Shown here piece after piece: positions 2,887 to 55,658 of a stretch of 64,000 bases of DNA. Position numbers and translations under genes: made by a program. Position 1 is the first letter of the stretch. Every line of letters begins with the position of its first letter. The DNA comes from Caldisericales bacterium (GTDB taxonomy: Bacteria; Caldisericota; Caldisericia; JAAYUI01). The DNA lies in contig JAKIZT010000004.1 of NCBI GenBank assembly GCA_022707885.1, positions 12,243 through 76,242 of the forward strand. Direction: 5' to 3'. The notes beneath the pieces are model-generated. The model was given only the letters and a program-made list of their open reading frames with translations, was not told the DNA's origin and searched no databases.

Positions 2887-2894
<8 letters not shown>

Positions 2895-5565
2895 TTTCTG
2901 CCCGGACAATGGCAGTTCTTGTTGTCTGATCCCATTTAACATCACAATTGATTGCATCTGCAACAAAACGGAGTGGAACAAATGTCCTGCCTGTCCTGAT
3001 TTGGGGCGTTGCATCAAGCTGGTATGGTTGTCCGTTTATATAGGCATTTTTCTTGCCCACCCACATGGTTATTATGTCTTGCCCTCTTAGGAGGTCTATT
3101 CTTTGCTCGGATGCAAGCCATTTGGTCTGGTAGCCCAGTTTTTCAGCAATATATCTCAATGGCACGAGCGTTTTCCCATTGGTTATAAACGGAGATGCTT
3201 CAAGCTCCTCACAATTTCCATTGTTCCAGGCCTTTCTGTCATCAATATGAAATGCCAGCTCTCTGATATCGGTCCTGTTTATTGTTCTTCTAACCCAAAG
3301 CGATCTGCCATAAGAAGAATCCTCGACTTTAAAGAGCACGTCGCTGGAGCGCACATCAAGATCAATATCAACAGAATAGCTGCCCTCGGAGGTCAGCCTT
3401 GGAATATATTTCTTGCTCTGACCTTCCACAACAAGCACCTGGTCCTTGGTTGAACTTCCAGAAACAGTCACAATATTGCCCTTTATGTTTTGCCCATCCG
3501 CAATGCTTGTTTGCAATGAAAAACCGTTCTTGTCAATATTGGTTCTGCAAATGGGCAAATCAGACAACAGGTGGACTGCCAAATCTGGCGATTTGACAGT
3601 GGCCAGCGTCAAAGAGATATTTGATGCTCCCTGCTTCCTTCCCAAAAAACAGAATGAAAAGGCAATCCCTGGGGAGGAGATGCCATACTTTTCAAAACTT
3701 CTGGCAAATGAGAAAATGATTCTGCCTCTTGACTGGATCGAGTTGGGTGCTTCACAACAACGATAATCCATCGTGGCAAATTGCCCTACCTTCATCTTCT
3801 GGAACTGGAGTTTCTCACTGTCATATTCAAGCTGTGCCGACAGAGAATCAACGGGGAGGGATGGAGAAATAAGCAAATCAATCCATAATTCCTGTCCCTG
3901 TTTTGCGTATGTATATTCTGGCAAAAGGACAAGCTCTGTAACAGTTGGTGGCGGTGCTTTGACAACAATCTCGAGTTCTGCCTGGCCCTTGTATTGCTGG
4001 GACTCACCCTTCACGACAACAACCACTTTTTGTGGAACAACAAATTTCTCGACCTGCACAATGACCCTGGCGTCCTGGTTTGGGAGCGGGTCAGGCGGGT
4101 CGAAGGTTATGGTGATGCCATACGTGGTCGTATAGGATAGCTTGAGCGGGTAGATGGCGGGCACTTCTCCAAAAACAAGCTTTGTTTCTGCTTTCCGACC
4201 AGATACCACTGTAACGGACGCCGGAGAGAAAGCCATCTGAATATCTTGCTTTGGAATGACCGGCTCCTGCTTCATGCCAGGGTCGCCAAGCAGGATAAAT
4301 GAATAGACATTTTGAAGGTATTTGTTCTGCCAGCCATTTATTGTCCTGAATTCTTTTGCGAATGACTCAAGACTTTTTGCAAGCGCAAAACCAATGGCAT
4401 CTCCTTCAGCATAATTTTTTGTTATGTAATAAGAGATCGTCTGGTTGCCACCATCAGAGGGCTTGCTCCATCCTGGGGTAAAGTAGTTTATCGCTGTTGC
4501 GCCAACAAAGGCACCAGCACCGGAACGCAAGGAAGCTGAACCCAGAGATGAGGCACCTCCTGCAACATCAGCTGTTGAGCAGGCTGTAGAGATGATGAGT
4601 CTTGACTTGATGATGTTGTTATAGAGCTGGCCATCATCAAGCAGAAGTGGCATCCTAATTTCAGTGGCGCTGTCTGCGTGGCCGTTCCCATTCTGATCGT
4701 TCAGCCAGTATTTTCTGACGATCCTGTTTGCCTCGCCATGAGCCAGCCAGTTGACCATTCCATAGTCATTTTTTGTAAGTTCATTCAACAAATTCGTGCT
4801 GTTGAGGCACATGTCGCCAGGAAGACCGGGTTTCGTGCCGTCACACTCGTAGAGGGTCTTTCTGATGTACCCCATTGGTTTCAGGATGTCGCTCCAGATC
4901 TTCTCTTCCATATCAGCGCCATCGGTGAATTTATTGGTTGGATCACCATCCTCGTTGTCAAAAGAGTAAAGCGCGGCCGCCTGCAGAACACTTTTCCTTG
5001 AGGAAGATGGTGAATCGTAGAGTTTCACCCTGTTCAAATACTTCTCAATGTTAGCCTGGTCGGAAAAGGGTATCCTTCCAACTGCAATTTTAGGGGCAAT
5101 CTGGACCTGGTCATCATCCGGCTCTCCGAGCCTTCCATCATTGTCCCTGTCCCAGTTGGTGTCTGGCTGGGAATAGAAATAGTCGGAATAGACCGGACCA
5201 GGCTCCCCCCAGACAACATTGTCCACGTTTTTTGCCGCATAGAGCCTGGGCATTGGAATGTCATTTGTATCACCAACAAGCAAAAGATACTTGATATTGA
5301 ATCTTTTCTGGTTGTCCCTGATATAATTCTGGAGCTGGAAGTAAGGCGCAATTCCACTGTTCCCTGCGATAATGTCTGTGGAATTGATAATTTTTACTGA
5401 ATACCCCTGTGATTCCCTATGTTTTTGCCACGATTGCAATACGCCTTCAGCGCCAGGGGCTGCAATAACCAAATACCCCCCCTGTTCCGCCGATTGTGCG
5501 AAGCGAGGGTAGGTGAGGGGTGCCAGGAAAACCAGGAGCGAGAGTACCAGAGAGATTTTTCGCAT
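2887..5565 (-). CDS. Secreted caspase-fold cysteine peptidase-like protein (C25/gingipain-like) with two C-terminal copper-amine-oxidase N-domain-like (CuAO-N) repeats
   Basis: 892 aa. Signal peptide MRKISLVLSLLVFLAPLTYPRFAQSA. YLLLVGDTNDIPMP, WLAHGEAN (His) and ISTACSTAD (Cys) resemble C25 motifs. The C-terminus carries two repeats with FVPLRYIAE / FVPLRFVADAINCDVKWDQTTRTAIV signatures. Confidence 0.5.
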
Positions 5566-5652: not shown

Positions 5653-8601
5653 TTAGTAGGAGAGTCTTTCGATTCTTACAGTTTTTGTGGCCGAATCAAA
5701 ATTGACTGTACAACCCATGTTCTCGGCCACGAATCTTAATGGTACAAAGGTTGTCCCAGATTTTATTTCCGGTTCGGTATCAAGTTCAATGGCTTTTTGG
5801 TCAACATAGGCCGTCTTTGAGCCAACCCTCATGATTATAAATATTGATGCACCACCCTCATTGAGTGTGATAGTAATACTCTTGTCCTCGGGAAGCCACT
5901 CGACTCTTGCACCAAAAGCTTGTGATATGGCCCTTATCGGAACCATTGTTCTCGAGCTCTTGATGTAGGGGGCAACTGAAAGCGGAGGATTAGAGGTCTG
6001 ACCATCAATGAGCATGGTCGGATTGCCAATCACCATCTCAACAACGGTTTCGTGCCATACCGTGAGAGTAATGGGTTTTTCAGTCGAATTCCCGGCTTTG
6101 TCCATTGCGACAAGCACCAGATTGTTCTGGCCTTTTTTGACCTGGACAGTTGCTTTGAAGATGTCATTCACAACAGTTGCTTCAACTTCCCCAATCCTGA
6201 CTCTGGAGCCAGGTTCGACTCTGCCTTTTATTTCAACCGATTCAACATCAATGAGCTTGTCGAGGTTGTCAAGTATCACCAATGGTGGGATATTGTCCAT
6301 CTCCACCACCACCATTTTTTCCGTCTCGTTTCCGGATGGGTCTTTCGTGGTGATAATTATCTTGTTGACCCCGTTTTGTAACGTGACGGTGGCAAGAAAC
6401 TTGCCTGTTGAGTCCACAACAGCTCTTGTTCCATTAACAAAAACAACGCAATCTGGCTCGGTTGTTCCCATCACATTTACCTTTTCTTCCTTGGTGAGTT
6501 CTGGAAGCGGGTCAATATTGAGTATGGGGGGCTGCTTGTCCTTTGCTATCCTGTAGGTCATGAGGGTGTCCCTGAAACCGTTCTTTGTAGCCTGTACTAC
6601 AATCTCGCCCTCCTGGGTGAAAGTGCACTCAATGGTTGCCTTTCCCTTTGTATTTGTAACAGCTGTGGCGTCAAAACCACAGCCCTTAACGGTGATATTT
6701 ACATTTGGGACAACTTCCTGTGTCCCCGATGTATAGCAAGTCACAAAAGCCTTTATGGTTTTTCCTACCTCGGGTTGGGACTCCCATTCGATGACAATCT
6801 CAAGACCCTTGTAGACATCCAGCCACATGACTTCCTGCAACTCATAATATTGCGGTGAGTTTGGAAGAACTTCAAGCCAGGACCTGTTTTGTGTCTTGTA
6901 TCTCATCTCGACAACTGCTTCACCAGTACCCGTCGGCGTGAAGACCATGGTTGTCTCGACATCATTGTAGCGCTCTTCATATTCTGTACGCCCATAAATC
7001 GCCGCTTCGTGCTGGTTGCCTTTGAAACCCGGTTCACCTTCAACGTGCATCGGCAAATCCCTTTCATCGGCAGGCTGGGTGATAACAACAACATGGTTTT
7101 GGGTGGAGTAAACCAGATCATAATTGTCTTTGTTGAAAAAATATTTAGGAAGGTCTTCTCTTGTTTCTGCAATCAGAAGTTTGAACTTTGGAGGTGCTAT
7201 TTTTGCAAGCGTTTCTGGTATTGCATCAAAATCAAGCCAGTAAACTCCATCGCCCTTGTATCTGGATGTTACGAAACTGGCGGAAGTGTTTGTATTTGGT
7301 GGCTTTCCTGCAGCATCAATATCGGCCCAGTAGTTGTTCCCAACCAGACCGCCTATGAAGCAGGCATCCTCGGCAAAAATGTAGAGGCTCGTCTGGCCGT
7401 TTACATCAAGATTCAGGCTGTCCCTGTAATCAATCACCTTATCATCATTGAGGTTGGCAAAGATCATGCCGTCAAAGTGTTGGCTGTTATAGATGCAACC
7501 AAGCCCCCAACCACCATATTCGGCCGGTGGAAGGTCAAAAAATGGATGAGTAGAGTATTCTCCATTATTGTACCTTACATTGGTAGTGTTGTAGTAAGTA
7601 AGATAGCCAGTCCATATTTTATTGGCAGTATCAAAAACATACTGTGGGCCGAAAGAGAATATTTCCTTGTTTGTCCACTCGAGCCTGCCATCATTGTTGA
7701 GGTCAAGCCCGAGATGCATATCATAGCGACCGCCGTCATCGGAAAGGAAATATGCCTGCCCGCCTGCATAGAAATTGAATCCCTGGGCAAGCGTTGGCTT
7801 GGTTACCCACTTGTAGTTTGCCGGTCTGGTAGTAAACGGTGTAAATCTGGCAGTTTTTTTGATTCCGGTGCAAAGGCTGACTCCCTGTGAAATACCCCTG
7901 ACCACTCTCCCTTCTGCGTCCTGAACAGTCACCCTGATGTTATATATCCTGTTATCACATGCTGTCATTACAAAATCTGGGTCACCAGGGCTTTCAAAAG
8001 CCTTTGATTCCGTATCCTCGGTGTTGGTGATTTTGTAGGTGACCACAGGTGTCTTTACGGCTATTCTTGCTTCCCCTGCAAACCTTCTGTCGGGGGTGAT
8101 GACTTTTATCCTCAATTCACCAACATCATTCGCCACAAAACCCTTGAAGATGTATATTCCTCTGGAAGCCTGTGAAAAATCGATTTCAATAAGGTTTCTA
8201 CCAAAAAGGAGCTTGTTGCAGACATTTGTTCCATCATCATTGTGCAGGTCAGTTCTCGTCCAGTAGTAACTGGGAAGAACTGCATTTCTGCCATAGTAAT
8301 ATGTGTTGTCCGGGTGAGGATCCAGAAATAACTGATTCCACACGACTTTTTGGTCAATAGTGGAACCATCAACTCCTCTCGTCAAGTCAACAGGCTTTCC
8401 GTTCTGGTCTGTAACCATAAGCTGGAAAGGCCTTGCCGGATCAACTAGTTCGGCGGCCATTCCGGCCGTCAGGATGGATGGTGTCGGGGTTATGATGAGG
8501 GAGGACGCTGCCAGTGCCTTGCTACTTTCCTTCGCAAATCCCGGGAATGCCAACATCCCAAGGACCAAGGCTAGCGAAATTATTGTTCTAATGGTTTTCA
8601 T
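5653..8601 (-). CDS. Large secreted surface protein (982 aa) with two C-terminal CuAO-N-like repeats
   Basis: Signal peptide MKTIRTIISLALVLGMLAFPGFA. C-terminal MVPIRAISQAFGARVEW and FVPLRFVAENMGCTVNFDSATKTVRIERL repeats. Long beta-rich central region. Confidence 0.8.
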   Translation of the reverse strand: MKTIRTIISLALVLGMLAFPGFAKESSKALAASSLIITPTPSILTAGMAAELVDPARPFQLMVTDQNGKPVDLTRGVDGSTIDQKVVWNQLFLDPHPDNTYYYGRNAVLPSYYWTRTDLHNDDGTNVCNKLLFGRNLIEIDFSQASRGIYIFKGFVANDVGELRIKVITPDRRFAGEARIAVKTPVVTYKITNTEDTESKAFESPGDPDFVMTACDNRIYNIRVTVQDAEGRVVRGISQGVSLCTGIKKTARFTPFTTRPANYKWVTKPTLAQGFNFYAGGQAYFLSDDGGRYDMHLGLDLNNDGRLEWTNKEIFSFGPQYVFDTANKIWTGYLTYYNTTNVRYNNGEYSTHPFFDLPPAEYGGWGLGCIYNSQHFDGMIFANLNDDKVIDYRDSLNLDVNGQTSLYIFAEDACFIGGLVGNNYWADIDAAGKPPNTNTSASFVTSRYKGDGVYWLDFDAIPETLAKIAPPKFKLLIAETREDLPKYFFNKDNYDLVYSTQNHVVVITQPADERDLPMHVEGEPGFKGNQHEAAIYGRTEYEERYNDVETTMVFTPTGTGEAVVEMRYKTQNRSWLEVLPNSPQYYELQEVMWLDVYKGLEIVIEWESQPEVGKTIKAFVTCYTSGTQEVVPNVNITVKGCGFDATAVTNTKGKATIECTFTQEGEIVVQATKNGFRDTLMTYRIAKDKQPPILNIDPLPELTKEEKVNVMGTTEPDCVVFVNGTRAVVDSTGKFLATVTLQNGVNKIIITTKDPSGNETEKMVVVEMDNIPPLVILDNLDKLIDVESVEIKGRVEPGSRVRIGEVEATVVNDIFKATVQVKKGQNNLVLVAMDKAGNSTEKPITLTVWHETVVEMVIGNPTMLIDGQTSNPPLSVAPYIKSSRTMVPIRAISQAFGARVEWLPEDKSITITLNEGGASIFIIMRVGSKTAYVDQKAIELDTEPEIKSGTTFVPLRFVAENMGCTVNFDSATKTVRIERLSY

Positions 8602-11285: not shown

Positions 11286-11389
11286 CTGATCAGGCCAAAT
11301 TAAACCGAGCTTAAATACTTTTGACACGATTTCGTGGTTGACTCGTGTGTAAGTATATGTACAAAGAAGTCATCCTTAAAGGAGGCAAA

Positions 11390-12151
11390 ATGAAGTACAC
11401 AAAAATATTGGTTCTTTTCTTGGCAGTCGTTCTTCTCGGTTCATTAGTCCTGACAGCATGCGGCGGAAGCAACACAAATCCGACAGACAACGGAACGCCG
11501 ACTGATCAGGGAACTACCGACCAGGGAACAACTGATCAAAACAATAATGGACAGACCGACCAGGGCACAGACAAGCCAGCCGGTGAAGAAGACGACATCC
11601 TCGTTGTTCCGGGAATGGAATCCAATGTCAGGCTGAATGCTGGCGACGTTGTTCCAGACCTCAAGTTCAAGCTCCATCCAGTCTCTGCAGGTTCCGAATC
11701 GTCCCTCTACCAGATCATGGAAGAAAACAACGCAAAAGCACTCGTCCTTGATTTCTGGGCAGTCTGGTGCGAACCGTGCAAGGAAGAGCTCCCATATCTT
11801 GAACAGCTCCACAGACAGTATAAAGACAAGGGTCTCGTAGTTCTTGCCGCAACCATTGATCCATTTGAAGATGAAGTTTCAATCATGGAAACACTCGATG
11901 GGACAAACGACAACAAGATCAAGAAGTCATGGAAGAAGCTTGGCGAGTTCGAGCTCATCGATGGACAGGCAATCACAATGAACATCCCGGTTGATGGCGA
12001 CAGGGCAATGTCCAAGGCACTCGGAGTCACCTCAATCCCAAGGACATTCCTCATCGACAAGGACCACAAGCTTGTTTATCAGCACACTGGCTTTGACGAG
12101 GGCAAGGTCAACGAGCTTATCCAGAAGGTCAAGGAAGTGATGGGAGAGTAA
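11390..12151 (+). CDS. TlpA/ResA-like thiol:disulfide oxidoreductase lipoprotein, paralog 2
   Basis: Lipobox LVLTACGGS, a TDQGTTDQGTTDQ low-complexity linker, and a C-terminal 160 aa about 80% identical to the upstream paralog (VLDFWAVWCEPCKEELPYL). The start at 11390 is preceded by AAAGGAGG. Confidence 0.8.
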   Translation: MKYTKILVLFLAVVLLGSLVLTACGGSNTNPTDNGTPTDQGTTDQGTTDQNNNGQTDQGTDKPAGEEDDILVVPGMESNVRLNAGDVVPDLKFKLHPVSAGSESSLYQIMEENNAKALVLDFWAVWCEPCKEELPYLEQLHRQYKDKGLVVLAATIDPFEDEVSIMETLDGTNDNKIKKSWKKLGEFELIDGQAITMNIPVDGDRAMSKALGVTSIPRTFLIDKDHKLVYQHTGFDEGKVNELIQKVKEVMGE

Positions 12152-12166
12152 AACCTCCAAAAAATC

Positions 12167-12199
12167 AAAGCGCTCCTTTTAAAAGGAGCGCTTTTTTTG
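12167..12199 (+). terminator. Rho-independent terminator after tlpA paralog 2; its T-run overlaps a TATAAT -10 element (12200-12205)
   Basis: AAAGCGCTCCTTTT/AAAAGGAGCGCTTT hairpin followed by 7 T residues, then TATAAT. Confidence 0.7.
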
Positions 12200-12226
12200 T
12201 ATAATGGCAAAAAAGGAGGTGTAGGA

Positions 12227-12508
12227 ATGAGCGTAACTCATGTCGCAGGAGAGAACAAAGGGACCATTTTCATTTATGCGCTTAGCACATGTGGTTGGTG
12301 CAAAAAAACCAAGGAATTCCTTAAAGAACTGGGCCTGGAGTATAGTTACGTTGATGTAGACCTCTTGCCAGAAAGTGAAGAAGACAAAACAGTCGAAGAA
12401 ATGAAAACCTGGAATCCGACCTCTTCATTTCCAACAATCGTAATCAACAACAAAAAGGCAGTCATTGGCTTCCAGCCTGACAAAATAAAGGAGCTCCTGG
12501 GAATATGA
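12227..12508 (+). CDS. Glutaredoxin/NrdH-like small thiol-disulfide protein (CGWC)
   Basis: IFIYALSTCGWCKKTKEFLKELGLEY is a glutaredoxin-like fold. A strong RBS AAGGAGGT precedes ATG 12227. The stop overlaps the next gene's start (ATGA). Confidence 0.6.
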   Translation: MSVTHVAGENKGTIFIYALSTCGWCKKTKEFLKELGLEYSYVDVDLLPESEEDKTVEEMKTWNPTSSFPTIVINNKKAVIGFQPDKIKELLGI

Positions 12509-13014
12509 GCCCCGCTCAGGAACAGATTGACCAGCTTTATTCAAAACTGAAAACAGAGGCAGAAGAGGGCGGTTACCACCTGAATCCTGATGCCACGTTC
12601 ACAAAAAATCTCATCAGTGGCCTTTTAACAAATCAAACGAGGTTTGGCTATCAATCCTGCCCATGCAGGCTGGCCACTGGCTCGATCGATGATGATCTGG
12701 ACATTGTATGCCCCTGTGATTACAGGGACCCTGATATTGCAGAGTTTGGCACCTGTTATTGCGCTCTTTATGTAAACGAGGAAATAAGCTCTGGAAAAAA
12801 GCAGGCAAGTTCAATCCCTGAAAGAAGACCAACAAAAGAACAGCGCCAAAAACAAGGAACCCCAAATACTCAGGTTGAAAAAAGGTCAACCTTATTACCA
12901 TATCCAATCTGGCGCTGCAAAGTGTGTGGCTATCTCTGCTCAAGGGAAACACCCCCTGAAAAATGCCCGATCTGCAAAGTAGGAAAAGAAAGGTTTGAAA
13001 AGTACACAATCTAG
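12505..13014 (+). CDS. Ferredoxin:thioredoxin reductase catalytic-subunit-like protein fused to a C-terminal rubredoxin-like zinc/iron ribbon
   Basis: The FTR-catalytic CPC signature is present twice: SCPCRLATG and IVCPCDYRDPDIAEFGTCYCALY. The C-terminus WRCKVCGYLC....CPICKV is rubredoxin-like (CxxC..CxxC). Confidence 0.6.
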   Translation: MSPAQEQIDQLYSKLKTEAEEGGYHLNPDATFTKNLISGLLTNQTRFGYQSCPCRLATGSIDDDLDIVCPCDYRDPDIAEFGTCYCALYVNEEISSGKKQASSIPERRPTKEQRQKQGTPNTQVEKRSTLLPYPIWRCKVCGYLCSRETPPEKCPICKVGKERFEKYTI

Positions 13015-14513: not shown

Positions 14514-14712
14514 GTACAAGTGCCCTTCTTGCGGGCACAAATTTTCAGAGCTTTTATCATATGATGCCAAAAATCCGAAATGTCCCAAGTGTGGATGTGA
14601 AAACACCAAAAAAATGGTGTCTTCATTTTCCTCACCATCTTCTTCAACAAATTCTTCAGGCTCGTCCTGCAATTCATGTAACGGAGGTTCGTGTAGCTCA
14701 TGTCAAAGATAG
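14500..14712 (+). CDS. FmdB-family zinc-ribbon protein
   Basis: MPIYEYKCPSCGHKFSEL...CPKCG is the canonical FmdB CxxC..CxxC N-terminus, followed by a Ser-rich tail. Confidence 0.6.
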   Translation: MPIYEYKCPSCGHKFSELLSYDAKNPKCPKCGCENTKKMVSSFSSPSSSTNSSGSSCNSCNGGSCSSCQR

Positions 14713-15911
14713 ACCCTTGTAGACTCAGAAGAGATTTCACAGTCCTGGACAGGGAAAACCCGCCCATTTACCTCGACAACGCCTGCATGACACTAAAACC
14801 CAAACAGGTTGTCGATGCAATGACCACCTACTATGACGAGTACCCGGTTTGCGAGGGAAGATCGGCCCATGCAATGGCAATGAGGCTCGAGCAGGACATG
14901 CTCGCTTCAAGAAGGGCCATAAAAGATTACATCAAGGCAAACCACGTAAACGAGATTGTGTTCACGAGGAACACCTCCGAATCAATAAGCATAGTTTCGT
15001 ATGGTATAGACTGGAAACCTGGCGATATCGTGCTGGTTTCAGACAAGGAACACAATTCAAACTTTGTCCCATGGTTCAGGCTGAAAGAGTGGGGCGTAAA
15101 AGTTATTGTTGTGCCATCCGGAGATGATGGAAGGTTCTCGGTTGACAACTGGGCAAAGGCAATAAAAGAGTCAAAACCAAGACTCATAAGCTTCTATCAC
15201 ACCTCAAACCTCGATGGCGAAACCTCAAGGGTGGCCGAGGTGTGCAAGCTTGGGAAAGAGGCCGGTGCACTGGTCTGCCTTGATGCAGCACAGGGAGCGG
15301 CACATGTCCCGCTCAATGTTCAGGAAATTGGCTGCGATTTCATGGCCATTTCGATCCACAAGATGTGCGGGCCGACAGGCATGGGCGCACTCTATGGGAA
15401 GCTTGAAGAACTCAGGAAACTTAAACCACTGACAACTGGTGGTGGAACAGTATTTTCTGTGACATACGATGAAGTAAAACTGCTTGATCCTCCAAGAAAA
15501 TTTGAGGCAGGACTGCAAAATTATGCCGGCATTGTGGGTGTAAAACCTGCCATAGATTATATCGAATCAATAGGGCTCTCAAACATACACGAGCACGAAA
15601 TTGAACTAAACCAGCACCTGCAAAACCTTCTTGAGGGTATTCCACAAATAAAGATCCTTGGGCCAAAAGACGCCAAGGACAGAGGCGGAATAACAAGCAT
15701 GACGGTCGAAGGCTACAATGTTCACGATCTTGCCATGATCCTTGACGACAGGGTAGGAATAATGCTTAGGGCAGGTTTCCATTGTGTGCACGGCTGGTTC
15801 AACTCAAGGGGAATCGATGGCACATTGAGGGTCTCAACCTATCTCTACAACACAAAAGAGGAGATGGAGATATTTGCCAGCGCCATCAAAGAGATAATCG
15901 CGGAGGAATAA
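14700..15911 (+). CDS. Cysteine desulfurase (class-V aminotransferase, SufS/CsdA-like)
   Basis: 403 aa. The PLP-lysine region ISIHKMCGPTGMGALYG and overall SufS-like length. Confidence 0.85.
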   Translation: MSKIDPCRLRRDFTVLDRENPPIYLDNACMTLKPKQVVDAMTTYYDEYPVCEGRSAHAMAMRLEQDMLASRRAIKDYIKANHVNEIVFTRNTSESISIVSYGIDWKPGDIVLVSDKEHNSNFVPWFRLKEWGVKVIVVPSGDDGRFSVDNWAKAIKESKPRLISFYHTSNLDGETSRVAEVCKLGKEAGALVCLDAAQGAAHVPLNVQEIGCDFMAISIHKMCGPTGMGALYGKLEELRKLKPLTTGGGTVFSVTYDEVKLLDPPRKFEAGLQNYAGIVGVKPAIDYIESIGLSNIHEHEIELNQHLQNLLEGIPQIKILGPKDAKDRGGITSMTVEGYNVHDLAMILDDRVGIMLRAGFHCVHGWFNSRGIDGTLRVSTYLYNTKEEMEIFASAIKEIIAEE

Positions 15912-18900
15912 TGAAAAGATTTGCATCGTTGACACTTGCCATAATAATGCTTGCGACCCTGCTGCCGCTTGCAGGCCAGGTGCAGGCATCGGACTACTCC
16001 TTTGCAGGGCTGATAGAGAAAATAACATCAGAAGCCCCCATGAAATATATTGAAAAACTCTCTTCGAAGGAATTCAGGGGCAGGATGGTTGGCGATCCTG
16101 GAGAGAAGATAACAACGGATTATATCGCCTCATTATACAAATCATTCGGCCTAAAACCGGCAGGCGACGATGGTACATATTTTCAAAACCTCACCACATC
16201 AGTTTTTCTTCCAAAATCACCTGTGGACTTCAGAATGGTTACAGAAGATGGGGGAACAGAGAAACAGTTTGTCTACAAAAAAGACTACAATTTCCTCCAG
16301 GTGACTGGATCAGGCAAGGCAAATGCAGAGGCCATCTTTGCAGGTTTTGGAATATCAACCCAAAAATACAATTACGACGACTACAAGGGAATTGATGTCA
16401 AGGGGAAGATTGTTGCCGTAATAAGGCACGCCCCGGACTACCTCAGGGAGCTGGCTGGTCAAGAAGCAGATTCCCTTATGGCGTTCCAGTACAAGGTAGA
16501 CAATGCAATAGCCCACGGGGCATCTGCCGTTATTGTATTTGAAAACCCAATGCTCCCGCCTGAAAACAGAAGAAACATGAACGATAAGATTGTCAGTGCA
16601 TACCCTTCTTCCATCCCATGTTTTTTTGTCTCTGTGGAATGCTCGAACCAGGTACTCTCAAAATCAGGCCTGACTTCCGAACAGCTATTCAAAAAAATCA
16701 ATGATTCCAAATCTCCTAGTTCTTTCCCGATCAAAAACACAAGGCTCCAGGTTGAAGTTAACGCAGAATTCAATCCTGCATACAAAACCTCCAATGTCGT
16801 CGGCTATATTCCGGCCTCGGACCCGTTTGGTGCGAATGAAACGGTTCTCATAACAGCACATTACGACCACCTCGGTGTGGATGTTGACGGTACCCTTTAT
16901 CCAGGTGCATGCGACAATGCCTCTGGTGTTGCATCAATGCTTGAAATTGCGAGGGCTTTCACGGACAGTGGCCTCAAGCCAAAAATAAACATCTGTTTTG
17001 CAGCGCTTACCGGTGAAGAGCTTGGCCTTGTCGGGGCAAGCTATATGGCCAACAATCCGCCTTTCCCGCTTGACGGAATGACAGTGCTCAACCTTGACAT
17101 GGTCTGCGGGGAACCAAACAGGATCAACCTCTCCATGGATGCCAATTTCACTGATCTTTTTGACAAACTGAAATTTTCCGGGTTAAAGGTCGGCGCCAAT
17201 GTGGGACAGGGGAGACCTGCAAACAACAATGATTCTGCGGCATTTTACGCAAAGGGTGTTCCATCTGTTTTCATATTTGGTGGAAGGGGCATGATGTGGC
17301 ACGATCCGGAAGACACCATAGAACACGTCAATCCAGACGGCCTCCAGCTTTGCACAAGGTTTGCAGCCCTGACAGCGTGTCTCTACGCTGAACCGTTCTT
17401 CCTTGCCCTTGACAACCAGACATTTGAATCTCCAGCGCCTGACTATGTTGTATCAGGCTACACCGGGAGAGGGGCAAGGGTCACTATCGGTGGCAGGCAG
17501 ACAATAGCCTCCGAAACTGGCAAATTCTCCATTCCGGTAACACTTGGCGAAGGCAAGAATGATTTGAAGGTTACGGCCACAAAACCATCGTCCGGTGAGA
17601 AGATCGAAAAAACAATCACTGTTTCGTATATTCTCCAGGCAAAAGCTGAACTTTCCACATCAATGCTGAACTTCGGTTTTGTGACCCAGAGATCAGAACC
17701 AAAAACGATCACATTCACAGTCACAAACACGGGCAAAGGTCCCCTTTCCGGAACATTGAAACCATGCTCTGACTGGCTTGAAATAAAACCGGCCAAACTC
17801 AATCCCGACAAAACCACCGTTGAGGCCACATTGTTACCAAAATGGCTCACCCCAAAAGGTTTCCATGTATGCATGATCCAGATTGAAACATCGGGTGGAA
17901 TGGTTTTTCTGCCTGTAACTGCAGTCACAGGCGAGGAGCCAACTGTAGAGCTTGTCATGACGCCAGGGTCAAAAAGGGTAAAAATCCAGGGCGATGACGT
18001 ACCAGTGAGCCAGGGGTTTGAGGTCGTGTCAAATGCCAACTGCTACCCATCATCTGTCCTTTCGATGTCATTCGGGATGCTTGTAAAAAAAGATGCTGAC
18101 GGGATAAAACTCACCTTCAATGACGAGCAGTACAGGTTGTGGACAGGTTCGGCAGTCGGATTGAAGGGCAACGTGCCGTTTACACTCAAAAAAGAAGTCT
18201 ATGAGAACAAAGATGAGGTAATGCTTCCCGAGAGCCTTCTTGAGATCATGGGCATGGGAATCGAGAAAAAAGAGGGCGGTCAGATTGTAATCACCTATGA
18301 CATATCAAAGGTTGCCCCATTTTCTGCCGAGATTTTCCCGCCGGATTTCATTGAGCTCGAACAAGACACAAAATATTCCAAAGATTTTTCATGGATGACA
18401 CGGCAATATTTCAAGTTCACACCAAACAGGAGTGGACTTTTAAGCTACACTATTCCGGAATGGCTGTACCTGGGTAATTACTACTCTAAGAATTATCCTG
18501 TTGAAAGCGGCAAAACAATTGAAATATGGCCATTTCCCAATAATGCACTCATAAACCAGCTCAAGCCAAAATCTGGAAAAATTGAGTTCTTCATAAACGG
18601 GCATCCCGTCGGGTCAGTTGAAGTGAAACTCAAATACGCAAATACAAAAAGGATAATCTCGATTATAATCGGATCAAAAACCGCCACCATTGATGGAGAG
18701 GAAAAAGAAGTCTCCCCGCCAGCCTTTATAGAAAATGGAACGACTTATGTTCCATACAGATTTATCGGAGAACCTTTCGGCGCAAAGGTGGAATGGGTTC
18801 AACAAACCAGGAGTGTCCGTGCAACAATAGGCACAACCACAATCGAGCTCACCATCAATTCCAAAAAGGCAATCATCAACGGTGTCCCGACAACACTCCA

Positions 18901-21900
18901 GAGCCCGGCAATAATAAAAGATGGAAGAACATTCGTCCCGATAAGATTTATTGGCGAGGCCTTTGGCGCCGATGTGAACTGGGACCAGAAAACAAAAACA
19001 GTCCTTGTAACACTGGATCTTGCAAAAGACAAACCGCTTATGGATGTAGATAAAAACAACATTGATATTCAGTGGCACGATGCAACACCAAACGCAATCC
19101 CGCCAAAAACAACAGTGACAATAGTAAACAAGGGCGGCGGAAAGATAATTTTCAAGGAACCCATTGATACCACAAGCACCATGAAAACAACACACGTTTC
19201 TGTCTCAAAAGAAAAAGTGATCCTTACCCCAATATTTGGAAGCGATCTACCTGTTGAAACAAGTGACACAGCAGTAGTTGTAACTTACAATGGAATTGTA
19301 GGATTAAATCTCAATGTTGGCATCTATCCAAAAGATTCGGTCCTCTTCTCATCAAAAGGAAACTTTTACAAAATCAACGGCTTTGAACAACAGGACCAGC
19401 CAAAGGTGCTCGATGGACTGGTCTCAACATCTATCCTCAAATTCATTTCCTCCTGTGGTGGATCAAGCATTTTTGATCCAACAAGCGGCAACCTTGCAGT
19501 AATTATGAGGGGTAAAACACTTGAGCTTGGCACAAAAACAGGTGACTTCTTCCTTGATGGCACCAAAATGCCATGGAAGTTCAGATATGAGGTAAAAGGC
19601 GAGGATGTTATCTTGCCTTGGGCTTGCCTTTCGCTTGCATTTGGCCTGGAAATAAATGAAAACTACGAGAGCGTCAGGGTCTGGCTCAAGAAAGAACCCC
19701 AGCCCCTTCTTTCACTCGACTGGCCAAGCATTGACCTTGTGAAGATGAACGACAAAAAGGTGGCAAAACCATTTGAGGCAAAGTTGTATCCAATAAGAGA
19801 GGGCGGTAAGTACAGTCTTCTCCAGGACCAGTCACCATACAAGCTTTTCTTCTTCTATTCCAACAACCAGGCATGTGCCAGAATGATACCATCCATTGAG
19901 AGCACCTTCAGAAGGTACAAGGACAAAGGTTTGTCCTGCTATCTTGTGTCAAACTCGATACCAACAGATTCTACAACAGAACAGTTTTTTGCAGGAAACA
20001 GGGACATAATGGAGGGACTCGATGCACTTTCAATAATTGGACTCACCCTGCCAATCATGTTTAATGAAAACGGCGAGATTTGTGAGGATTTCCCTGGCGA
20101 GTCAATTCCAAGACTATATATTATTAATTCCAAAGATGAGCTTGTCTTTGCCCTTCCTGATGTTAACCAGTCCCAGCTTATCTATCTTGAACAGGCTACA
20201 GCTTCTATTTTTGACAACCAGGGTGCCATCCCCCCGGATGTCCTGACAGTGAATGTCTCAAATAAAGGTGGCTCTGCTGGCCAGGGTTCAATAACATCGG
20301 ACTCACCACTGGTCAATGTTCTGACTGGCACTTTCAGGAGCTCACCTGCGCAGGTTTCATTGAGCTTTGATCCGTCAAAAGTGGAACTCAGGAACACGCC
20401 AAATTACACAACCGCAACAGCGACCCTGCTGGGGACAAGCAACCAGGTCGAGATTCCGGTCAGGTGCTGGAATGTTCCGCCTTTCACTGCTTTCTCAAGC
20501 TGGTATGGCGGTTCAAAAACAATAAGGATAAACGGCTCGAATATCAGCATACCTGTCGCTGCCACTGCAGGTGATGACCCGGTTGGACCAATAGGGTTGG
20601 TTGCAAAATCCATAGGCGCAGAAGTGAGAATCCTCTCCAACCAGACGGTCAGGTTTATTGCCGGGCAGAATGAAGCGACAATGTATATTGGGCAAAACTT
20701 CGCCGAATCTGGCGGATCAAAATTCGAGTTTGGCGGTAAATTCTCGATAGAATCAGGAGAAATATATGGCCCTGTAAAATTTCTGTCACAATTTGCAGGG
20801 GCAACCCTCCAGAGTTTTGACGGAACAATAGTTTTATGGGCACCAACAATAAAGGGAAGGGCAACAACCCCACTCCTCTCGGTTGATAAATCCAGTCTGA
20901 TGTTCAATTCATACATCCCGCCAGCAGGTGGTTTCAGGGCAGCACCGGATTTTGAACTCCCAAGCTACCCATACTCCTCGGGGACAAAAACAAAACTCTC
21001 CGAGCTCCTCAAAAAACCGGAAGTACAGGTTGTCATCATTGATTTCTGGGCAACATGGTGCCCACCATGCAAGTCCTCCATGCCCCACTTGGAGAAACTC
21101 TGGAGAAACTACAAAAACAAAGGTCTTGTTGTGCTTGGCGTCATAACCGACCAGGATGAAAAGACAGATGAAGACATTGAGGAAACTCTTACTGAGGATC
21201 CAAGAATCAAGGGTGGCTTAAAATCGCTTGGCCTGGACAAAATAACTTATCCGATGTGCTATGACATCAGGCCAGAACTCAAAACATTCCGCCTTTACGA
21301 AGGAAAAGCAATTCCAAGGCTTGTCGTCATTACAAAAGACATGAAGTGGGCATACACAAATGTGGGCTTCTGGGACCAGGGCGTAAGGAACCTTGAGTTC
21401 AAGGTAAGAAGACTTCTTGGAATTGAAGAAAGTGCAAAAATACCATCCCTCAGCCTTTCAAACATTGGCGTTGGAGAGCTCTCCGGAACAATAACAAGCT
21501 CTCTCCCGTACATAACACCAAAAAATACAAATTTCTCCACCACTGACTCCACTTCAATCGAATTTTCAATCAACACATGGACTGCACCGGTTTACCCAGA
21601 GACAGGGACAATAACCATAGAATCCAATGGTGGGAAATTTGTTTGCGATATTCAATACGATCCAGTTTTTGAAAACAAACCGCTGGAGCTAAAAATTAAC
21701 ACCACTGACAGCTCTCTTACGTTCAACAACCTGAAAACCAAGGTTTCTGTGCCCACAAAAACCTTTGGTGATAAATATCTGGTCGCGATCAATTCACTGC
21801 TCCCGGCACTTGGCGGATCAGCTTCGGTGCTTCCAGACAGAAAAAGGGCACTGGGTCAGTTCGAAACATGGCAGATAAGCGTCGAGCACAACAAAACGGC

Positions 21901-22057
21901 CATATCTGCAGGGCCATTCACTCTGAATGCACAGGCCCCGACAATCATTGAGGGTAGCAACATCTTTGTGGACTTTGAAACACTCTGCGACATAATCGGA
22001 GCAGAAGCATCTTTTGAAAACGAAAACAAAACACTGGTATTGAGGTATGAGATATGA
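15911..22057 (+). CDS. Giant secreted multidomain surface protein: N-terminal M28 Zn-aminopeptidase (with PA domain), Ig-like repeats, CuAO-N stalk repeats, two thioredoxin-like domains (one single-Cys, one canonical WCPPC) and a C-terminal CuAO-N-like domain
   Basis: Likely start MKRFASLTLAIIMLATLLPLAGQVQA (signal peptide) at 15911, overlapping the sufS stop. M28 motifs: ITAHYDHLGVD, ACDNASGVASMLEIARAF, TGEELGLVGASYMA. CuAO-N repeats: YVPYRFIGEPFGAKVEW and FVPIRFIGEAFGADVNWDQKTKTVLVTL. Canonical thioredoxin: VVIIDFWATWCPPCK...IPRLVVI. Degenerate thioredoxin: FFFYSNNQACARM...IPRLYII. Confidence 0.8.
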   Translation: MKRFASLTLAIIMLATLLPLAGQVQASDYSFAGLIEKITSEAPMKYIEKLSSKEFRGRMVGDPGEKITTDYIASLYKSFGLKPAGDDGTYFQNLTTSVFLPKSPVDFRMVTEDGGTEKQFVYKKDYNFLQVTGSGKANAEAIFAGFGISTQKYNYDDYKGIDVKGKIVAVIRHAPDYLRELAGQEADSLMAFQYKVDNAIAHGASAVIVFENPMLPPENRRNMNDKIVSAYPSSIPCFFVSVECSNQVLSKSGLTSEQLFKKINDSKSPSSFPIKNTRLQVEVNAEFNPAYKTSNVVGYIPASDPFGANETVLITAHYDHLGVDVDGTLYPGACDNASGVASMLEIARAFTDSGLKPKINICFAALTGEELGLVGASYMANNPPFPLDGMTVLNLDMVCGEPNRINLSMDANFTDLFDKLKFSGLKVGANVGQGRPANNNDSAAFYAKGVPSVFIFGGRGMMWHDPEDTIEHVNPDGLQLCTRFAALTACLYAEPFFLALDNQTFESPAPDYVVSGYTGRGARVTIGGRQTIASETGKFSIPVTLGEGKNDLKVTATKPSSGEKIEKTITVSYILQAKAELSTSMLNFGFVTQRSEPKTITFTVTNTGKGPLSGTLKPCSDWLEIKPAKLNPDKTTVEATLLPKWLTPKGFHVCMIQIETSGGMVFLPVTAVTGEEPTVELVMTPGSKRVKIQGDDVPVSQGFEVVSNANCYPSSVLSMSFGMLVKKDADGIKLTFNDEQYRLWTGSAVGLKGNVPFTLKKEVYENKDEVMLPESLLEIMGMGIEKKEGGQIVITYDISKVAPFSAEIFPPDFIELEQDTKYSKDFSWMTRQYFKFTPNRSGLLSYTIPEWLYLGNYYSKNYPVESGKTIEIWPFPNNALINQLKPKSGKIEFFINGHPVGSVEVKLKYANTKRIISIIIGSKTATIDGEEKEVSPPAFIENGTTYVPYRFIGEPFGAKVEWVQQTRSVRATIGTTTIELTINSKKAIINGVPTTLQSPAIIKDGRTFVPIRFIGEAFGADVNWDQKTKTVLVTLDLAKDKPLMDVDKNNIDIQWHDATPNAIPPKTTVTIVNKGGGKIIFKEPIDTTSTMKTTHVSVSKEKVILTPIFGSDLPVETSDTAVVVTYNGIVGLNLNVGIYPKDSVLFSSKGNFYKINGFEQQDQPKVLDGLVSTSILKFISSCGGSSIFDPTSGNLAVIMRGKTLELGTKTGDFFLDGTKMPWKFRYEVKGEDVILPWACLSLAFGLEINENYESVRVWLKKEPQPLLSLDWPSIDLVKMNDKKVAKPFEAKLYPIREGGKYSLLQDQSPYKLFFFYSNNQACARMIPSIESTFRRYKDKGLSCYLVSNSIPTDSTTEQFFAGNRDIMEGLDALSIIGLTLPIMFNENGEICEDFPGESIPRLYIINSKDELVFALPDVNQSQLIYLEQATASIFDNQGAIPPDVLTVNVSNKGGSAGQGSITSDSPLVNVLTGTFRSSPAQVSLSFDPSKVELRNTPNYTTATATLLGTSNQVEIPVRCWNVPPFTAFSSWYGGSKTIRINGSNISIPVAATAGDDPVGPIGLVAKSIGAEVRILSNQTVRFIAGQNEATMYIGQNFAESGGSKFEFGGKFSIESGEIYGPVKFLSQFAGATLQSFDGTIVLWAPTIKGRATTPLLSVDKSSLMFNSYIPPAGGFRAAPDFELPSYPYSSGTKTKLSELLKKPEVQVVIIDFWATWCPPCKSSMPHLEKLWRNYKNKGLVVLGVITDQDEKTDEDIEETLTEDPRIKGGLKSLGLDKITYPMCYDIRPELKTFRLYEGKAIPRLVVITKDMKWAYTNVGFWDQGVRNLEFKVRRLLGIEESAKIPSLSLSNIGVGELSGTITSSLPYITPKNTNFSTTDSTSIEFSINTWTAPVYPETGTITIESNGGKFVCDIQYDPVFENKPLELKINTTDSSLTFNNLKTKVSVPTKTFGDKYLVAINSLLPALGGSASVLPDRKRALGQFETWQISVEHNKTAISAGPFTLNAQAPTIIEGSNIFVDFETLCDIIGAEASFENENKTLVLRYEI

Positions 22058-22260
22058 GCGAAATGACGGATGAAGCAGAATTTGTAATGGATATCCTTAA
22101 AGGTAAGGGCAAAATGACCACCACCCAGATTGAGGAGGCCATCAAGGCCCAGGGGATCGCATGCAGAGATGCAGCATCAAGATTCCTGCCCGGACTCAAA
22201 GCCCAGGGTTTTATAAAAGGTGAATTCAAAAACAAAACGTGGGTGTGGTGGGTTGATTGA
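22054..22260 (+). CDS. Small hypothetical protein (68 aa) translationally coupled between the giant protein and uvrC
   Basis: 4-nt overlaps with both neighbours. No recognisable motif. Confidence 0.35.
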   Translation: MSEMTDEAEFVMDILKGKGKMTTTQIEEAIKAQGIACRDAASRFLPGLKAQGFIKGEFKNKTWVWWVD

Positions 22261-34330: not shown

Positions 34331-34642
34331 TTACAAAAGCTGGCCTTTCGCCCATTCAAGATAGGGCAAATTTACTTCAGAAGGCCCAAAGGTTATTATG
34401 GCCGGTAACTCATAAGGATGATTTTCTTCAACAAATTTTTTCAACTCTTCGACTTTCTGCTCTATTGTCTTGAAGATGACCACGCGCTCGGAATCATGTA
34501 CCAGCTCGCCCTTCCATTCATAGATCGAATCCGACTGGAAGATGTTTGCGCACACGGCCAGTTTTTTTGAAACAGCATTTTTTGCTGCCTGTTCTGCTTG
34601 TGATTTTGTAGGATAGGGACAGTAAACCAGAAACAGGCTCAT
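34331..34642 (-). CDS. cutA: Divalent-cation tolerance protein CutA
   Basis: LVYCPYPTKSQAEQAAKNAVSKKLAVCANI...YEWKGEL is the canonical CutA1 pattern. Start taken at MSLFLV. Confidence 0.7.
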   Translation of the reverse strand: MSLFLVYCPYPTKSQAEQAAKNAVSKKLAVCANIFQSDSIYEWKGELVHDSERVVIFKTIEQKVEELKKFVEENHPYELPAIITFGPSEVNLPYLEWAKGQLL

Positions 34643-49626: not shown

Positions 49627-49859
49627 TTGTCAAACAGCTTTACTCTTTTGACTACCTTTCCCCTGTTGTCTTCTGAAGCGTACATTCCAAAAACCAGAAG
49701 AAACATCATGGCCAAAAAGATGAGACCAAAAGCAACAAGCTGGACAAAACCGAATGGACCCAGTTCTCCCAGTACCTTTGCTGTCTGGACGAGCTGTGCA
49801 AGCGAAAGCACTCCAACCAGCAAGGCAAGGATAAAAATCAGGGTCCATTCATTTTTCAC
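49602..49859 (-). CDS. Small membrane protein (2 TM) in the Rieske/cyt b/Flx-like operon
   Basis: 85 aa with two hydrophobic helices and a basic C-terminus. Overlaps the cytochrome b gene by 4 nt. Confidence 0.4.
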   Translation of the reverse strand: MKNEWTLIFILALLVGVLSLAQLVQTAKVLGELGPFGFVQLVAFGLIFLAMMFLLVFGMYASEDNRGKVVKRVKLFDKWLSKEKK

Positions 49860-51328: not shown

Positions 51329-51337
51329 TCTGGCCTC

Positions 51338-52186
51338 CTAAAAAGCCGCCGGCATTGCGGCGATCTGGGCTGATGTGAACACCGGGCCGTCCTGGCAGAC
51401 GTAGTTGTGTCCAACATTGCATCTTCCACATTTTCCGCAACCGCAGTTCATTCTGGCCTCAAGAGAAGCAAAAATCTTGTCTTTCGGGAACCCTATCTTG
51501 TCCAGACCAATGAGGGTGAACTTGATCATCACTGGCGGACCTGATATGACAATTGCAGTGTTTTTGAAGCCTGGGTCAATTTCAAACAGCAACCTCGACC
51601 TGTTTTTGAAGTTTGGATCATAATACTGTCCGACAACACCAACATCTTCTTTCCATGTGCTGTCACCCTTGTCGCATGATCTCTTTACCTCAACGTCTTT
51701 TACTTTTGCCCACTCGAAAATCTTGTTTTTGAAGACTTGGTCGGCAGGTGTTTTCGCACCATAGAGTATTTCTATCTTGCCGTAATCAGATCTCTTGTCG
51801 AGGGAATAGGTGAGCATGTTGCTTATGGCCGAGAAACCCACACCTCCGGCCATATAACTTATGTTCATGCCTTTGAGCGCATCCTTCGGGAAGCCGTTTC
51901 CATAGGGCCCCCTCAAAGTGACCCTGTCTCCAACCTTCATCCCATGGAGCTTCTCAGTCACCGCGCCAACTTTCATGATGGTCAGCTCAAGGTGTTCCCT
52001 CTTTGTTGGGGTGTTGCCAATGGATATCGAGCAGTCGCCAACACCAGGAACTCCAATTATGCAGAACTGGCCAGGATTATAGTCAAAATTCCCGCCATCC
52101 CTTTTGATGTAGAAAGTTTTGATATTTGGCGTTTCCTGTTCGATTTTTTCAATTGTGGCCATCTCTGGCAGATACGGGTTCGTCAC
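51338..52186 (-). CDS. FAD/NAD(P)-binding oxidoreductase with C-terminal [2Fe-2S] cluster (sulfhydrogenase gamma HydG / FlxA / AsrB-like)
   Basis: The probable GTG start (52186..52184; RBS GGGAGGT) gives MTNPYLPEMATIEKIEQETPNIKTFYIK. FNR-like FAD and NAD folds. C-terminal CGCGKCGRCNVGHNYVCQDGPVF (2Fe-2S). GTGA overlap with the upstream gene. Confidence 0.7.
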   Translation of the reverse strand: MTNPYLPEMATIEKIEQETPNIKTFYIKRDGGNFDYNPGQFCIIGVPGVGDCSISIGNTPTKREHLELTIMKVGAVTEKLHGMKVGDRVTLRGPYGNGFPKDALKGMNISYMAGGVGFSAISNMLTYSLDKRSDYGKIEILYGAKTPADQVFKNKIFEWAKVKDVEVKRSCDKGDSTWKEDVGVVGQYYDPNFKNRSRLLFEIDPGFKNTAIVISGPPVMIKFTLIGLDKIGFPKDKIFASLEARMNCGCGKCGRCNVGHNYVCQDGPVFTSAQIAAMPAAF

Positions 52187-55656: not shown

Positions 55657-55658
55657 AG

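Follow-up and report, generated by a model that had tools for sequence, protein, structure and literature searches.

A 2048-residue protein of Caldisericia combining an M28 aminopeptidase domain, a chain of stalk modules and two thioredoxin-fold domains

Introduction

Secreted M28 aminopeptidases, ResA/TlpA-like thiol-disulfide oxidoreductases and exported enzymes with a Cu_amine_oxidN1 (PF07833) stalk domain all belong to known protein families. Domains of all three kinds are found together in the protein described here, which is referred to below as the giant protein. Its gene lies at nucleotides 15911 to 22057 (+) of a 64,000-nucleotide stretch of DNA from a Caldisericales bacterium (assembly GCA_022707885.1, contig JAKIZT010000004.1, positions 12,243 to 76,242). 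This whole stretch is called the window, and all coordinates are window positions unless another locus is named. An earlier note on this DNA, made from its sequence, had described the product as a surface protein of about 2050 amino acids (aa) of unusual architecture.

The best solved relatives of aa 28-500 are YwaD of Bacillus subtilis (6hc6), the Aneurinibacillus AM-1 aminopeptidase (2ek8) and the Vibrio/Aeromonas leucyl aminopeptidase (1amp). All three are secreted exopeptidases and share the HxD, DNxSG, EE, D and H motifs with the giant protein. YwaD and AM-1 also have a PA domain. They differ in their length of 290-455 aa and in having no stalk, Ig or thioredoxin domains; identity to the giant protein is low, and the match is to the catalytic core only.

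The intact thioredoxin-fold domain of the giant protein, T2, resembles ResA, DsbE (CcmG), TlpA and StoA, as well as the surface lipoproteins Etrx1/2 and SdbA. Common to all of them are a fold in which a hairpin stands at the N-terminus and an insertion in the middle, a WCxxC motif, a cis-proline, and an extracytoplasmic location (predicted for T2). StoA also has CPPC. The described proteins are anchored in the membrane or by a lipid, single-domain and 140-190 aa long, with defined clients and a CcdA/DsbD donor, whereas T2 is embedded in a 2048-aa chain with no donor or client nearby. The presence of a catalytic thioredoxin domain and a conserved redox-dead paralogue (T1) on one chain is reminiscent of protein disulfide isomerase (PDI, a-b-b'-a'). 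PDI has no sequence relation to the giant protein beyond the fold; T1 and T2 are of the ResA/TlpA subclass with an Ig-stalk module between them, and substrate binding by T1 would be by analogy only.

In Firmicutes, descriptions of PF07833 call it typical of cell-wall hydrolases and predict that it binds the wall. The Firmicutes PF07833 proteins, cell-wall hydrolases among them, likewise consist of an exported enzyme with one or more PF07833 domains, often C-terminal. The giant protein differs from these in that it has five copies with an Ig-like partner for every one of them, and in that its cargo is M28 and thioredoxin domains instead of a peptidoglycan hydrolase; that PF07833 binds the wall is itself a prediction.

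Two further kinds of protein place TlpA-like domains inside large exported multidomain chains, as the giant protein does. P0201 (1112 aa, from an unrelated lineage) has two TlpA-like domains, TPR and Trypsin_2, and is an independent thioredoxin-peptidase fusion, so that a peptidase joined to TlpA-like domains is not in principle without parallel. P0122-P0126 have three to six tandem TlpA-like domains. None of these has stalk or Ig modules, no degenerate thioredoxin paralogue was noted in them, and they are unrelated to the giant protein outside the thioredoxin domain. The peptidase of P0201 is a serine peptidase, not M28. Keratinolytic enzyme sets (S8, M28 and M3 peptidases with a disulfide reductase or sulfite) also pair an M28 exopeptidase with disulfide breaking. 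Those are separate proteins of aerobic fungi and bacteria, while the giant protein is a fusion in an anaerobe. No description of this protein or of its architecture was found in the literature.

A single polypeptide predicted to be exported

The giant gene is one uninterrupted open reading frame (ORF) of 2048 codons with its stop codon at 22055-22057, in close agreement with the length given in the earlier note. Its extent is supported by the ORF list, the translation, the start context and 14 full-length homologues. In the sequence TAATG, the start codon ATG (15911) overlaps with the TAA that ends the preceding gene.

The N-terminus reads MKRFASLTLAIIMLATLLPLAGQVQA followed by SD and has the form of a Sec-type signal peptide (aa 1-27, 15911..15991, +), with MKR, a hydrophobic core and a putative cleavage site between VQA and SD. 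The hydrophobic segment begins at aa 3, there is no lipobox Cys, and the family consensus has a matching pattern. Neither a transmembrane segment, a lipobox nor a sorting motif was seen in the sequence or in a scan for transmembrane segments. The protein is predicted to be exported because it has a signal peptide and no membrane anchor. The surface placement proposed earlier is suggested by the signal peptide together with modules of the wall-binding type.

The order of domains is signal peptide, M28/PA, Big-like, I1-S1, I2-S2, I3-S3, T1, I4-S4, T2 and I5-S5, where I denotes an Ig-like domain, S a stalk domain and T a thioredoxin-fold domain. The gene product is one real polypeptide, predicted to be exported, with an M28/PA peptidase, a stalk chain and two thioredoxin-fold domains.

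Peptidase region

The M28 aminopeptidase occupies aa 28-500 (15992..17410, +), with the PA domain inserted at approximately aa 131-290. Both assignments made earlier hold in Pfam. Peptidase_M28 (PF04389; MEROPS M28) matches aa 295-486 with 121.2 bits (cut-off 21.3) in an alignment over positions 1-190 of the 193 in the profile, and PA matches aa 155-242 of the whole protein with 29.8 bits against a cut-off of 23.9.

All co-catalytic zinc ligands of the M28 family, H317, D335 (bridging), E370, D396 and H464, are present, as is the catalytic Glu, E369. These six residues are invariant in 16 of 16 aligned family sequences and correspond to the YwaD motifs in a residue-by-residue alignment to 6hc6. 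Further solved relatives of the region, beyond YwaD, are the Vibrio leucyl aminopeptidase, the AM-1 aminopeptidase, SGAP and the M28 keratinase KP1. The catalytic set of the domain is complete, and aminopeptidase activity is predicted.

A Big-like beta-sandwich (aa 501-578; 17411..17644, +) follows the peptidase. Its Glucodextran_B score is 27.1 bits, the cut-off being 27. A 665-aa short form of the protein (described below) has this domain too, as the BLASTP alignment to the short form at locus L004 extends to aa 581 of the giant protein.

Thioredoxin-fold domains

T2 (aa 1656-1840; 20876..21430, +) is an intact thiol-disulfide oxidoreductase domain of the TlpA/ResA/DsbE-like kind. The WCPPC motif is at aa 1716-1720 (nucleotides 21056-21070), with C1717 and C1720 as its cysteines, and the cis-proline P1802 lies in the motif IPRL at aa 1801-1804. 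Both motifs had been read at this place in the earlier note. The W-C-P-P-C and I-P-R residues are kept in 15 of 15 sequences. In Pfam, AhpC-TSA reaches 78.4 bits in two stretches of the whole giant protein, and Redoxin (56.7 bits, like AhpC-TSA above its cut-off), Thioredoxin_8 and Thioredoxin match aa 1677-1822.

A profile of T2 compared with sequences in the PDB finds DsbE 3gl3 (E 6e-16) and ResA, and the modelled domain superposes on 3gl3 with a TM score of 0.84 in Foldseek. The best solved relatives are DsbE, ResA, StoA, Etrx2 and SdbA. T2 scores far below the NCBIfam equivalog and subfamily cut-offs (ResA 54.4 against 170, StoA 40.2 against 210, TlpA 33.3 against 230) and for this reason is not classed as any of those enzymes.

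T1 (aa 1263-1425; 19697..20185, +) is a ResA/TlpA-like thioredoxin fold without CxxC. Scanned alone, it matches AhpC-TSA with 24.2 bits (E 3.5e-5), slightly under the cut-off of 26. A profile search against PDB sequences gives marginal matches only (E 0.07-0.3), all TlpA-like, so the fold is established by other means. Alignment of T1 to T2 with hhalign gives 98.4% (E 6e-15, 130 columns). The AlphaFold2 model of T1 has a predicted local distance difference test score (pLDDT) of 87.9 and a predicted template modelling score (pTM) of 0.85, and in Foldseek it matches ResA, DsbE and StoA with probability 1.00 and TM scores of 0.65-0.74. The degenerate domain proposed in the earlier note at nucleotides 19700-20160 is therefore real.

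The N-Q-A-C sequence of T1 (N1319-C1322) aligns with the C-P-P-C of T2. The CxxC position thus has N..C in the window protein, where Cys1322, a feature of the window lineage, holds the old resolving-Cys position, and x..S in most homologues. T1 is redox-dead on this reading of its residues, with the CxxC position occupied by N-Q-A-C here and the Cys replaced by Ser in most of the family. A peroxiredoxin identity was ruled out for T1, since neither Cys nor Thr is conserved at the peroxidatic position.

T1 keeps an invariant cis-Pro-Arg, P1400-R1401. Its mean pairwise identity in the family is 0.49, compared with 0.46-0.48 for the M28 N-lobe and PA domain, and lies above that of most stalk and Ig domains. 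With conservation on a level with the remainder of the protein, T1 is under selection. The most conserved parts of the chain are M28 (0.56) and T2 (0.59), and the I domains have values of 0.26-0.46. T1 and T2 are internal paralogues that arose by internal duplication, and the conserved dead copy is a small natural experiment in the repurposing of a redox domain. T1 also has a lone invariant cysteine, Cys1391 (nucleotides 20081..20083), nine residues N-terminal to the conserved cis-proline.

Ig-like and stalk modules

The remainder of the chain, about 60% of its length, is made up of I and S domains, which can be sorted into five modules. This plan was derived from Pfam scans of sub-segments and an all-against-all hhalign comparison of 16 segments of the 16-sequence family alignment. 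On the whole giant protein, Cu_amine_oxidN1 reaches 199.8 bits over five stretches.

Module 1 consists of I1 (aa 579-690), with an invariant cysteine pair C619/C654, and the stalk-like S1 (aa 691-800), and spans 17645..18310 (+). It is placed by sub-threshold Pfam matches and hhalign. Module 2 (18311..19030, +) consists of I2 (aa 801-915) and S2 (aa 916-1040), a canonical Cu_amine_oxidN1 domain identified by Pfam; hhalign also supports the module. Module 3 (19031..19696, +) consists of I3 (aa 1041-1165) and S3 (aa 1166-1262) and is placed by Pfam and hhalign. Module 4 (20186..20875, +) lies between T1 and T2 and consists of I4 (aa 1426-1535) and S4 (aa 1536-1655), with AlphaFold2 in addition to Pfam and hhalign as its basis. 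Module 5 (21431..22054, +; Pfam and hhalign) consists of I5 (aa 1841-1925) and the C-terminal stalk S5 (aa 1926-2048), a putative envelope anchor.

When the S domains are scanned alone against Cu_amine_oxidN1 (cut-off 24.2), S2 (179 bits) and S4 (34.4 bits) are above the cut-off, and S5 (21.8), S1 (14.3) and S3 (14.0) are under it. Comparison with hhalign connects S2 with S4 (96.7%), S1 with S2 (96.4%) and S2 with S5 (95.6%), and S3 is linked to S1 only (80.9%). The C-terminal stalk-like region named in the earlier note is thus borne out by its hhalign match to S2, although its Pfam score falls below the cut-off. The two internal stalk repeats of that note are instead the two halves of one Pfam domain, S2 (aa 927-1032), and there are five stalk domains in all.

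Among the I domains, hhalign connects I1 with I5 (96.9%), I4 (87.6%) and I2 (85.6%). I1 and I3 are connected at just 34.5%, and I3 is the weakest assignment among the modules. I2 is the most variable domain, with a mean pairwise identity of 0.26 and many insertions and deletions. I1 has weak Pfam matches to BACON_2 (22.7), DUF1573 and a HYDIN-type Ig domain. The many Ig-like repeats of the earlier note can therefore be counted as five related beta-sandwiches and one Big-like domain, with the qualification that the Pfam matches of the I domains are all sub-threshold.

In the AlphaFold2 model, I4 is seven-stranded and S4 is a repeated beta/alpha unit. The I domains are assigned as related seven-stranded sandwiches of the HYDIN/ASH type. 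A Foldseek search with the C-terminal model also matched hydin-like ciliary central-pair proteins, which fits the weak HYDIN-type match in Pfam; the aligned domains are not identifiable from the output. The model of the six C-terminal domains has a pLDDT of 85.3 and each domain is confident, but their arrangement is not fixed (pTM 0.50). This combination fits a stalk of the beads-on-a-string kind.

Distribution of the architecture

Among 5.8 billion proteins, a word-indexed search found 14 homologues of full length (2028-2066 aa). These are 41-95% identical to the giant protein at a query coverage of 99-100% and have the same Pfam set. Where a name is given, it is 'stalk domain-containing protein [Caldisericia bacterium]' or 'thiol-disulfide isomerase'. 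When 1.84 billion representatives were scanned exhaustively by HMMER, with aa 1263-2048 as the query, the whole C-terminal architecture was found in four 50%-identity clusters and in the fragment P0015 only, which agrees with the earlier view of the architecture as unusual. All remaining HMMER matches cover T2 alone, and the examples inspected are tandem TlpA-like proteins and one TlpA-TPR-trypsin fusion. None of the other M28 giants among the homologue-search matches listed has thioredoxin domains.

A collection of genomes was also scanned with generic stalk and M28 motifs, a pattern search that is not a census of the family. Among the matches listed, most were unrelated M28 enzymes and at least three were Caldisericota loci, and the short form described in the next section was revealed in this way. 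The giant protein is confined to Caldisericia and is a rare, uncharacterised architecture of which every part comes from a known family (M28, PA, PF07833, ResA/TlpA-like).

The earlier note had raised the possibility of an assembly error joining separate genes, and a fusion of separate peptidase, stalk and thioredoxin genes by assembly or annotation was considered accordingly. The homologue P0015 (locus L083, 8001..14236; metagenome-assembled genome GCA_041391325.1) would fit such an origin, since the giant is there split into a protein of 1629 aa, a 305-aa AhpC-TSA ORF and fragments. The neighbouring PASTA and rpe genes of that genome are also truncated, however, and with the neighbours fragmented too the split is likely an assembly artefact caused by frameshift-type errors. 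The 14 full-length versions, at 41-95% identity, have no stop or frame change. They come from independent assemblies and have the same domain order and the same gene context, which rules out a chimera. GC content across the gene in the window is 0.42-0.49, without a step change. The chance that the fusion is an artefact is practically negligible. The public annotation of GCA_041391325.1 is unreliable at the giant locus.

A short form without stalk or thioredoxin domains

Two loci of another Caldisericia lineage, L004 (12102..14099) and L005 (9267..11267), have a 665-aa protein at the corresponding position, after rsmD, coaD and a small ORF. This protein has the order M28-PA-Big-dockerin, shares 31% identity with aa 2-581 of the giant protein and ends in a type I dockerin. 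The next gene encodes a GerMN ('Germane') protein. Dockerins are typical of tethered exoenzymes. Based on this syntenic short form, the giant protein looks like an M28-PA exopeptidase in which Ig-stalk modules replaced the dockerin and TlpA-like domains were acquired. In the L004 lineage, a gene for a 201-aa TlpA-like protein, the counterpart of a TlpA-like lipoprotein of the window (see below), is found directly ahead of rsmD. The dockerin implies a cohesin-bearing scaffold somewhere in that genome.

Stalk domains as a possible envelope tether

Three further exported proteins encoded in the window end in Cu_amine_oxidN1. These are an 892-aa Peptidase_C25 (gingipain-like) protein (2887..5565, -), a 982-aa Glucodextran_B protein (5653..8601, -) and a 565-aa protein (34639..36336, -). 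The stalk domain seems to be the general C-terminal exoprotein tag of this organism. Caldisericum exile has no BamA, and its envelope has been judged to be of Gram-positive type under an outer-membrane-like layer. Tethering of the giant protein to the envelope via its S domains is therefore plausible.

The protein can also be compared with the fibrillar adhesin-like class. It has the repetitive stalk, but no adhesive Pfam domain, C-terminal transmembrane segment or sorting motif was seen in it, and its terminal domain is an enzyme.

Proposed function

The reading preferred here, held tentatively and falling a little short of probable, is that of an exoenzyme tethered to the envelope. Extracellular peptides would have their disulfides reduced by T2 and be trimmed by the M28 domain, with T1 as a non-catalytic binding or spacer domain. 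The protein would leave the cell by Sec export, stay on the envelope through its stalk domains and work as a 'reductive exopeptidase'. T2 would open disulfide bonds of extracellular peptides and proteins, T1 might act on the analogy of the PDI b' domain as a substrate-binding or spacer domain without catalysis, and the M28 domain would trim the freed N-termini and so feed a peptide-fermenting anaerobe. Re-reduction of T2 could come from a CcdA/DsbD-type membrane conduit or chemically from sulfidic surroundings. We infer this function from catalytic sets that are intact, from the ancestry as an exoenzyme, from the presence of stalk-tagged peptidases alongside and from the synergy of M28 peptidases with disulfide reductases on keratin. 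Such synergy between M28 exopeptidases and disulfide reductases has been reported on disulfide-cross-linked keratin, and the M28 keratinase KP1 among the solved relatives was counted for a degradative role.

Several points weigh against an exoenzyme. The gene sits in a conserved cluster of housekeeping appearance (grx, FTR-like, rsmD, coaD, sufS-like, giant, 68-aa ORF, uvrC, PASTA, rpe), unlike a nutrient-acquisition locus. No CcdA/DsbD-like gene was found in the 64-kb window (transmembrane-segment count and Pfam) or in loci L001 and L083-L085 (Pfam lists). Characterised TlpA/ResA-like proteins (ResA, TlpA, CcmG, Etrx) usually reduce specific envelope clients and not bulk substrates. In a habitat that is anaerobic and reducing, disulfides outside the cell may be scarce, and with a domain arrangement that is not confidently predicted by the model (pTM 0.50), no channelling geometry can be claimed.

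The main rival, a factor for the biogenesis or maintenance of the envelope, is rather unlikely. T2 would then be the specific extracytoplasmic reductant of envelope clients, in the assembly of metal or haem centres or the repair of oxidised surface proteins, the M28 domain would mature or trim the same clients, and the stalk modules would hold both at a fixed height in the wall. The nearest solved relatives of T2, the client-specific reductants ResA, DsbE, StoA, Etrx2 and SdbA, suit such a role, as does a single-copy gene in a conserved core cluster with overlapping frames. Thiol-redox genes for a TlpA-like lipoprotein, grx and an FTR-rubredoxin fusion come immediately before it in the window, and genes for Rieske and cytochrome b are close by, both in the window and in L001. 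In L001, however, the redox genes from upstream are not kept beside the giant, and next to it there is no gene for a client, Msr, Sco or cytochrome c maturation. The short-form orthologue, which has a dockerin and no thioredoxin domain, points to an exoenzyme origin. If the protein serves ordinary envelope maintenance, its architecture is a lineage-specific one of modest general interest.

Both enzyme domains could instead be connected by regulation, T2 sensing extracellular redox state or oxygen, perhaps with Cys1391 of T1, and switching the activity of the M28 domain or the conformation of the chain without acting on substrates. A catalytic and a degenerate thioredoxin domain on one chain and an invariant cysteine in the loop before the T1 cis-proline are consistent with redox gating, and the organisms are, to judge from their habitats and a cultured relative of the class, strict anaerobes. 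More than 1100 residues and eight folded domains separate T2 from M28, the AlphaFold2 model has no confident inter-domain contact, and the family alignment has no conserved cysteine in or near the M28 active site; gating is very unlikely. It is highly improbable that the protein is mainly a structural element of the envelope or a sheath, built of stalk and Ig modules with the enzyme domains as vestigial passengers. The share of I and S modules in its length, the unusual outer envelope-like layer of Caldisericum and the NCBI name of the homologues, just 'stalk domain-containing protein', would agree with a structural role, but all M28 ligands and the WCPPC and cis-proline of T2 are invariant, and the enzyme domains are the most conserved parts of the chain.

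A stronger version of the exoenzyme reading is a truly bifunctional 'reductive exopeptidase', in which reduction by T2 is mechanistically coupled to trimming by M28 while T1 holds the substrate. The conserved translational coupling to the SufS-like desulfurase would then reflect a dedicated pathway by which these anaerobes, which metabolise sulfur, harvest cysteine and sulfur from peptides outside the cell that contain cystine. This version is quite unlikely. If the exoenzyme reading is true, the giant protein is a natural single-chain disulfide reductase and exopeptidase on a modular stalk, a problem for which keratin degraders use separate enzymes, and could be a template when enzymes are engineered to digest proteins with cross-links. 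The protein also gives a first handle on the way exoenzymes are organised on the unusual, BamA-less envelope of the poorly known Caldisericota, with Cu_amine_oxidN1 as the apparent common tether.

Gene neighbourhood

The gene order around the giant is the same in the window and in L001/L002, L084 and L085 (loci 42-52% identical). It reads rsmD, coaD, one or more small ORFs, a SufS-like aminotransferase, the giant, an ORF of about 70 aa, uvrC, a PASTA lipoprotein, rpe and a CarboxypepD_reg lipoprotein. The junctions flanking the giant overlap or leave just 1-2 nucleotides in each locus compared. Across the lineages examined, the giant is single-copy and sits in a core-gene cluster with overlapping reading frames.

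The gene upstream of the giant (14700..15911, +) encodes a SufS-family-like class-V aminotransferase, cysteine desulfurase-like, the stop codon of which overlaps the start of the giant. It matches Aminotran_5 with 351 bits and sufS with 376 bits against an NCBIfam cut-off of 475. The same position is taken by a SufS-like gene in L001, L083, L084 and L085. Downstream, a conserved 68-aa ORF (22054..22260, +) overlaps both the stop of the giant (ATGA) and the TTG start of uvrC. It is 69-85% identical at the equivalent site in L001, L084 and L085, which makes it far more conserved than the giant, and it has no match in Pfam, NCBIfam or the PDB; its product is an unannotated small protein. The earlier proposal of translational coupling between a cysteine desulfurase, the giant and uvrC is retained for the TAATG overlap with the desulfurase-like gene. 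It needs amendment in that the sufS score is below the cut-off and the 68-aa ORF separates the giant from uvrC, to which coupling is indirect by way of this ORF.

A stand-alone TlpA-like lipoprotein, a paralogue of T2, is encoded farther upstream (11345..12151, +). It has the lipobox LTAC, the active site WCEPC, a Redoxin match of 68.5 bits and a low-complexity linker rich in T, D, Q and G. Compared with the T2 profile, hhalign gives 99.9% with 37% identity over 158 columns. It is not claimed to be the closest relative of T2, as stand-alone proteins elsewhere are 35-47% identical over the full domain. A perfect 12-bp bidirectional terminator hairpin lies 3' of this gene at 12167..12194. It is the sole convincing one in a promoter and terminator scan, the counts of which were no higher than in shuffled sequence.

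At 12197..13014 (+), a glutaredoxin-like gene (CGWC) overlaps by 4 nucleotides a gene for a fusion resembling the catalytic subunit of ferredoxin-thioredoxin reductase (FTR) and rubredoxin. Both genes recur ahead of rsmD in L084 and L085, and the pair is probably a disulfide-reductase system that works in the cytoplasm and depends on ferredoxin.

The cluster at 49856..56243 (-) has genes for a Rieske protein, a fusion of cytochrome b with 4Fe-4S, and another cytochrome b-like protein. In L001, a similar cluster (Rieske, cytochrome b, FlpD, Fer4, NAD-binding) lies directly upstream of rsmD. The Rieske/cytochrome b cluster represents a bc-like complex that is unusual for a fermentative or sulfur-reducing anaerobe.

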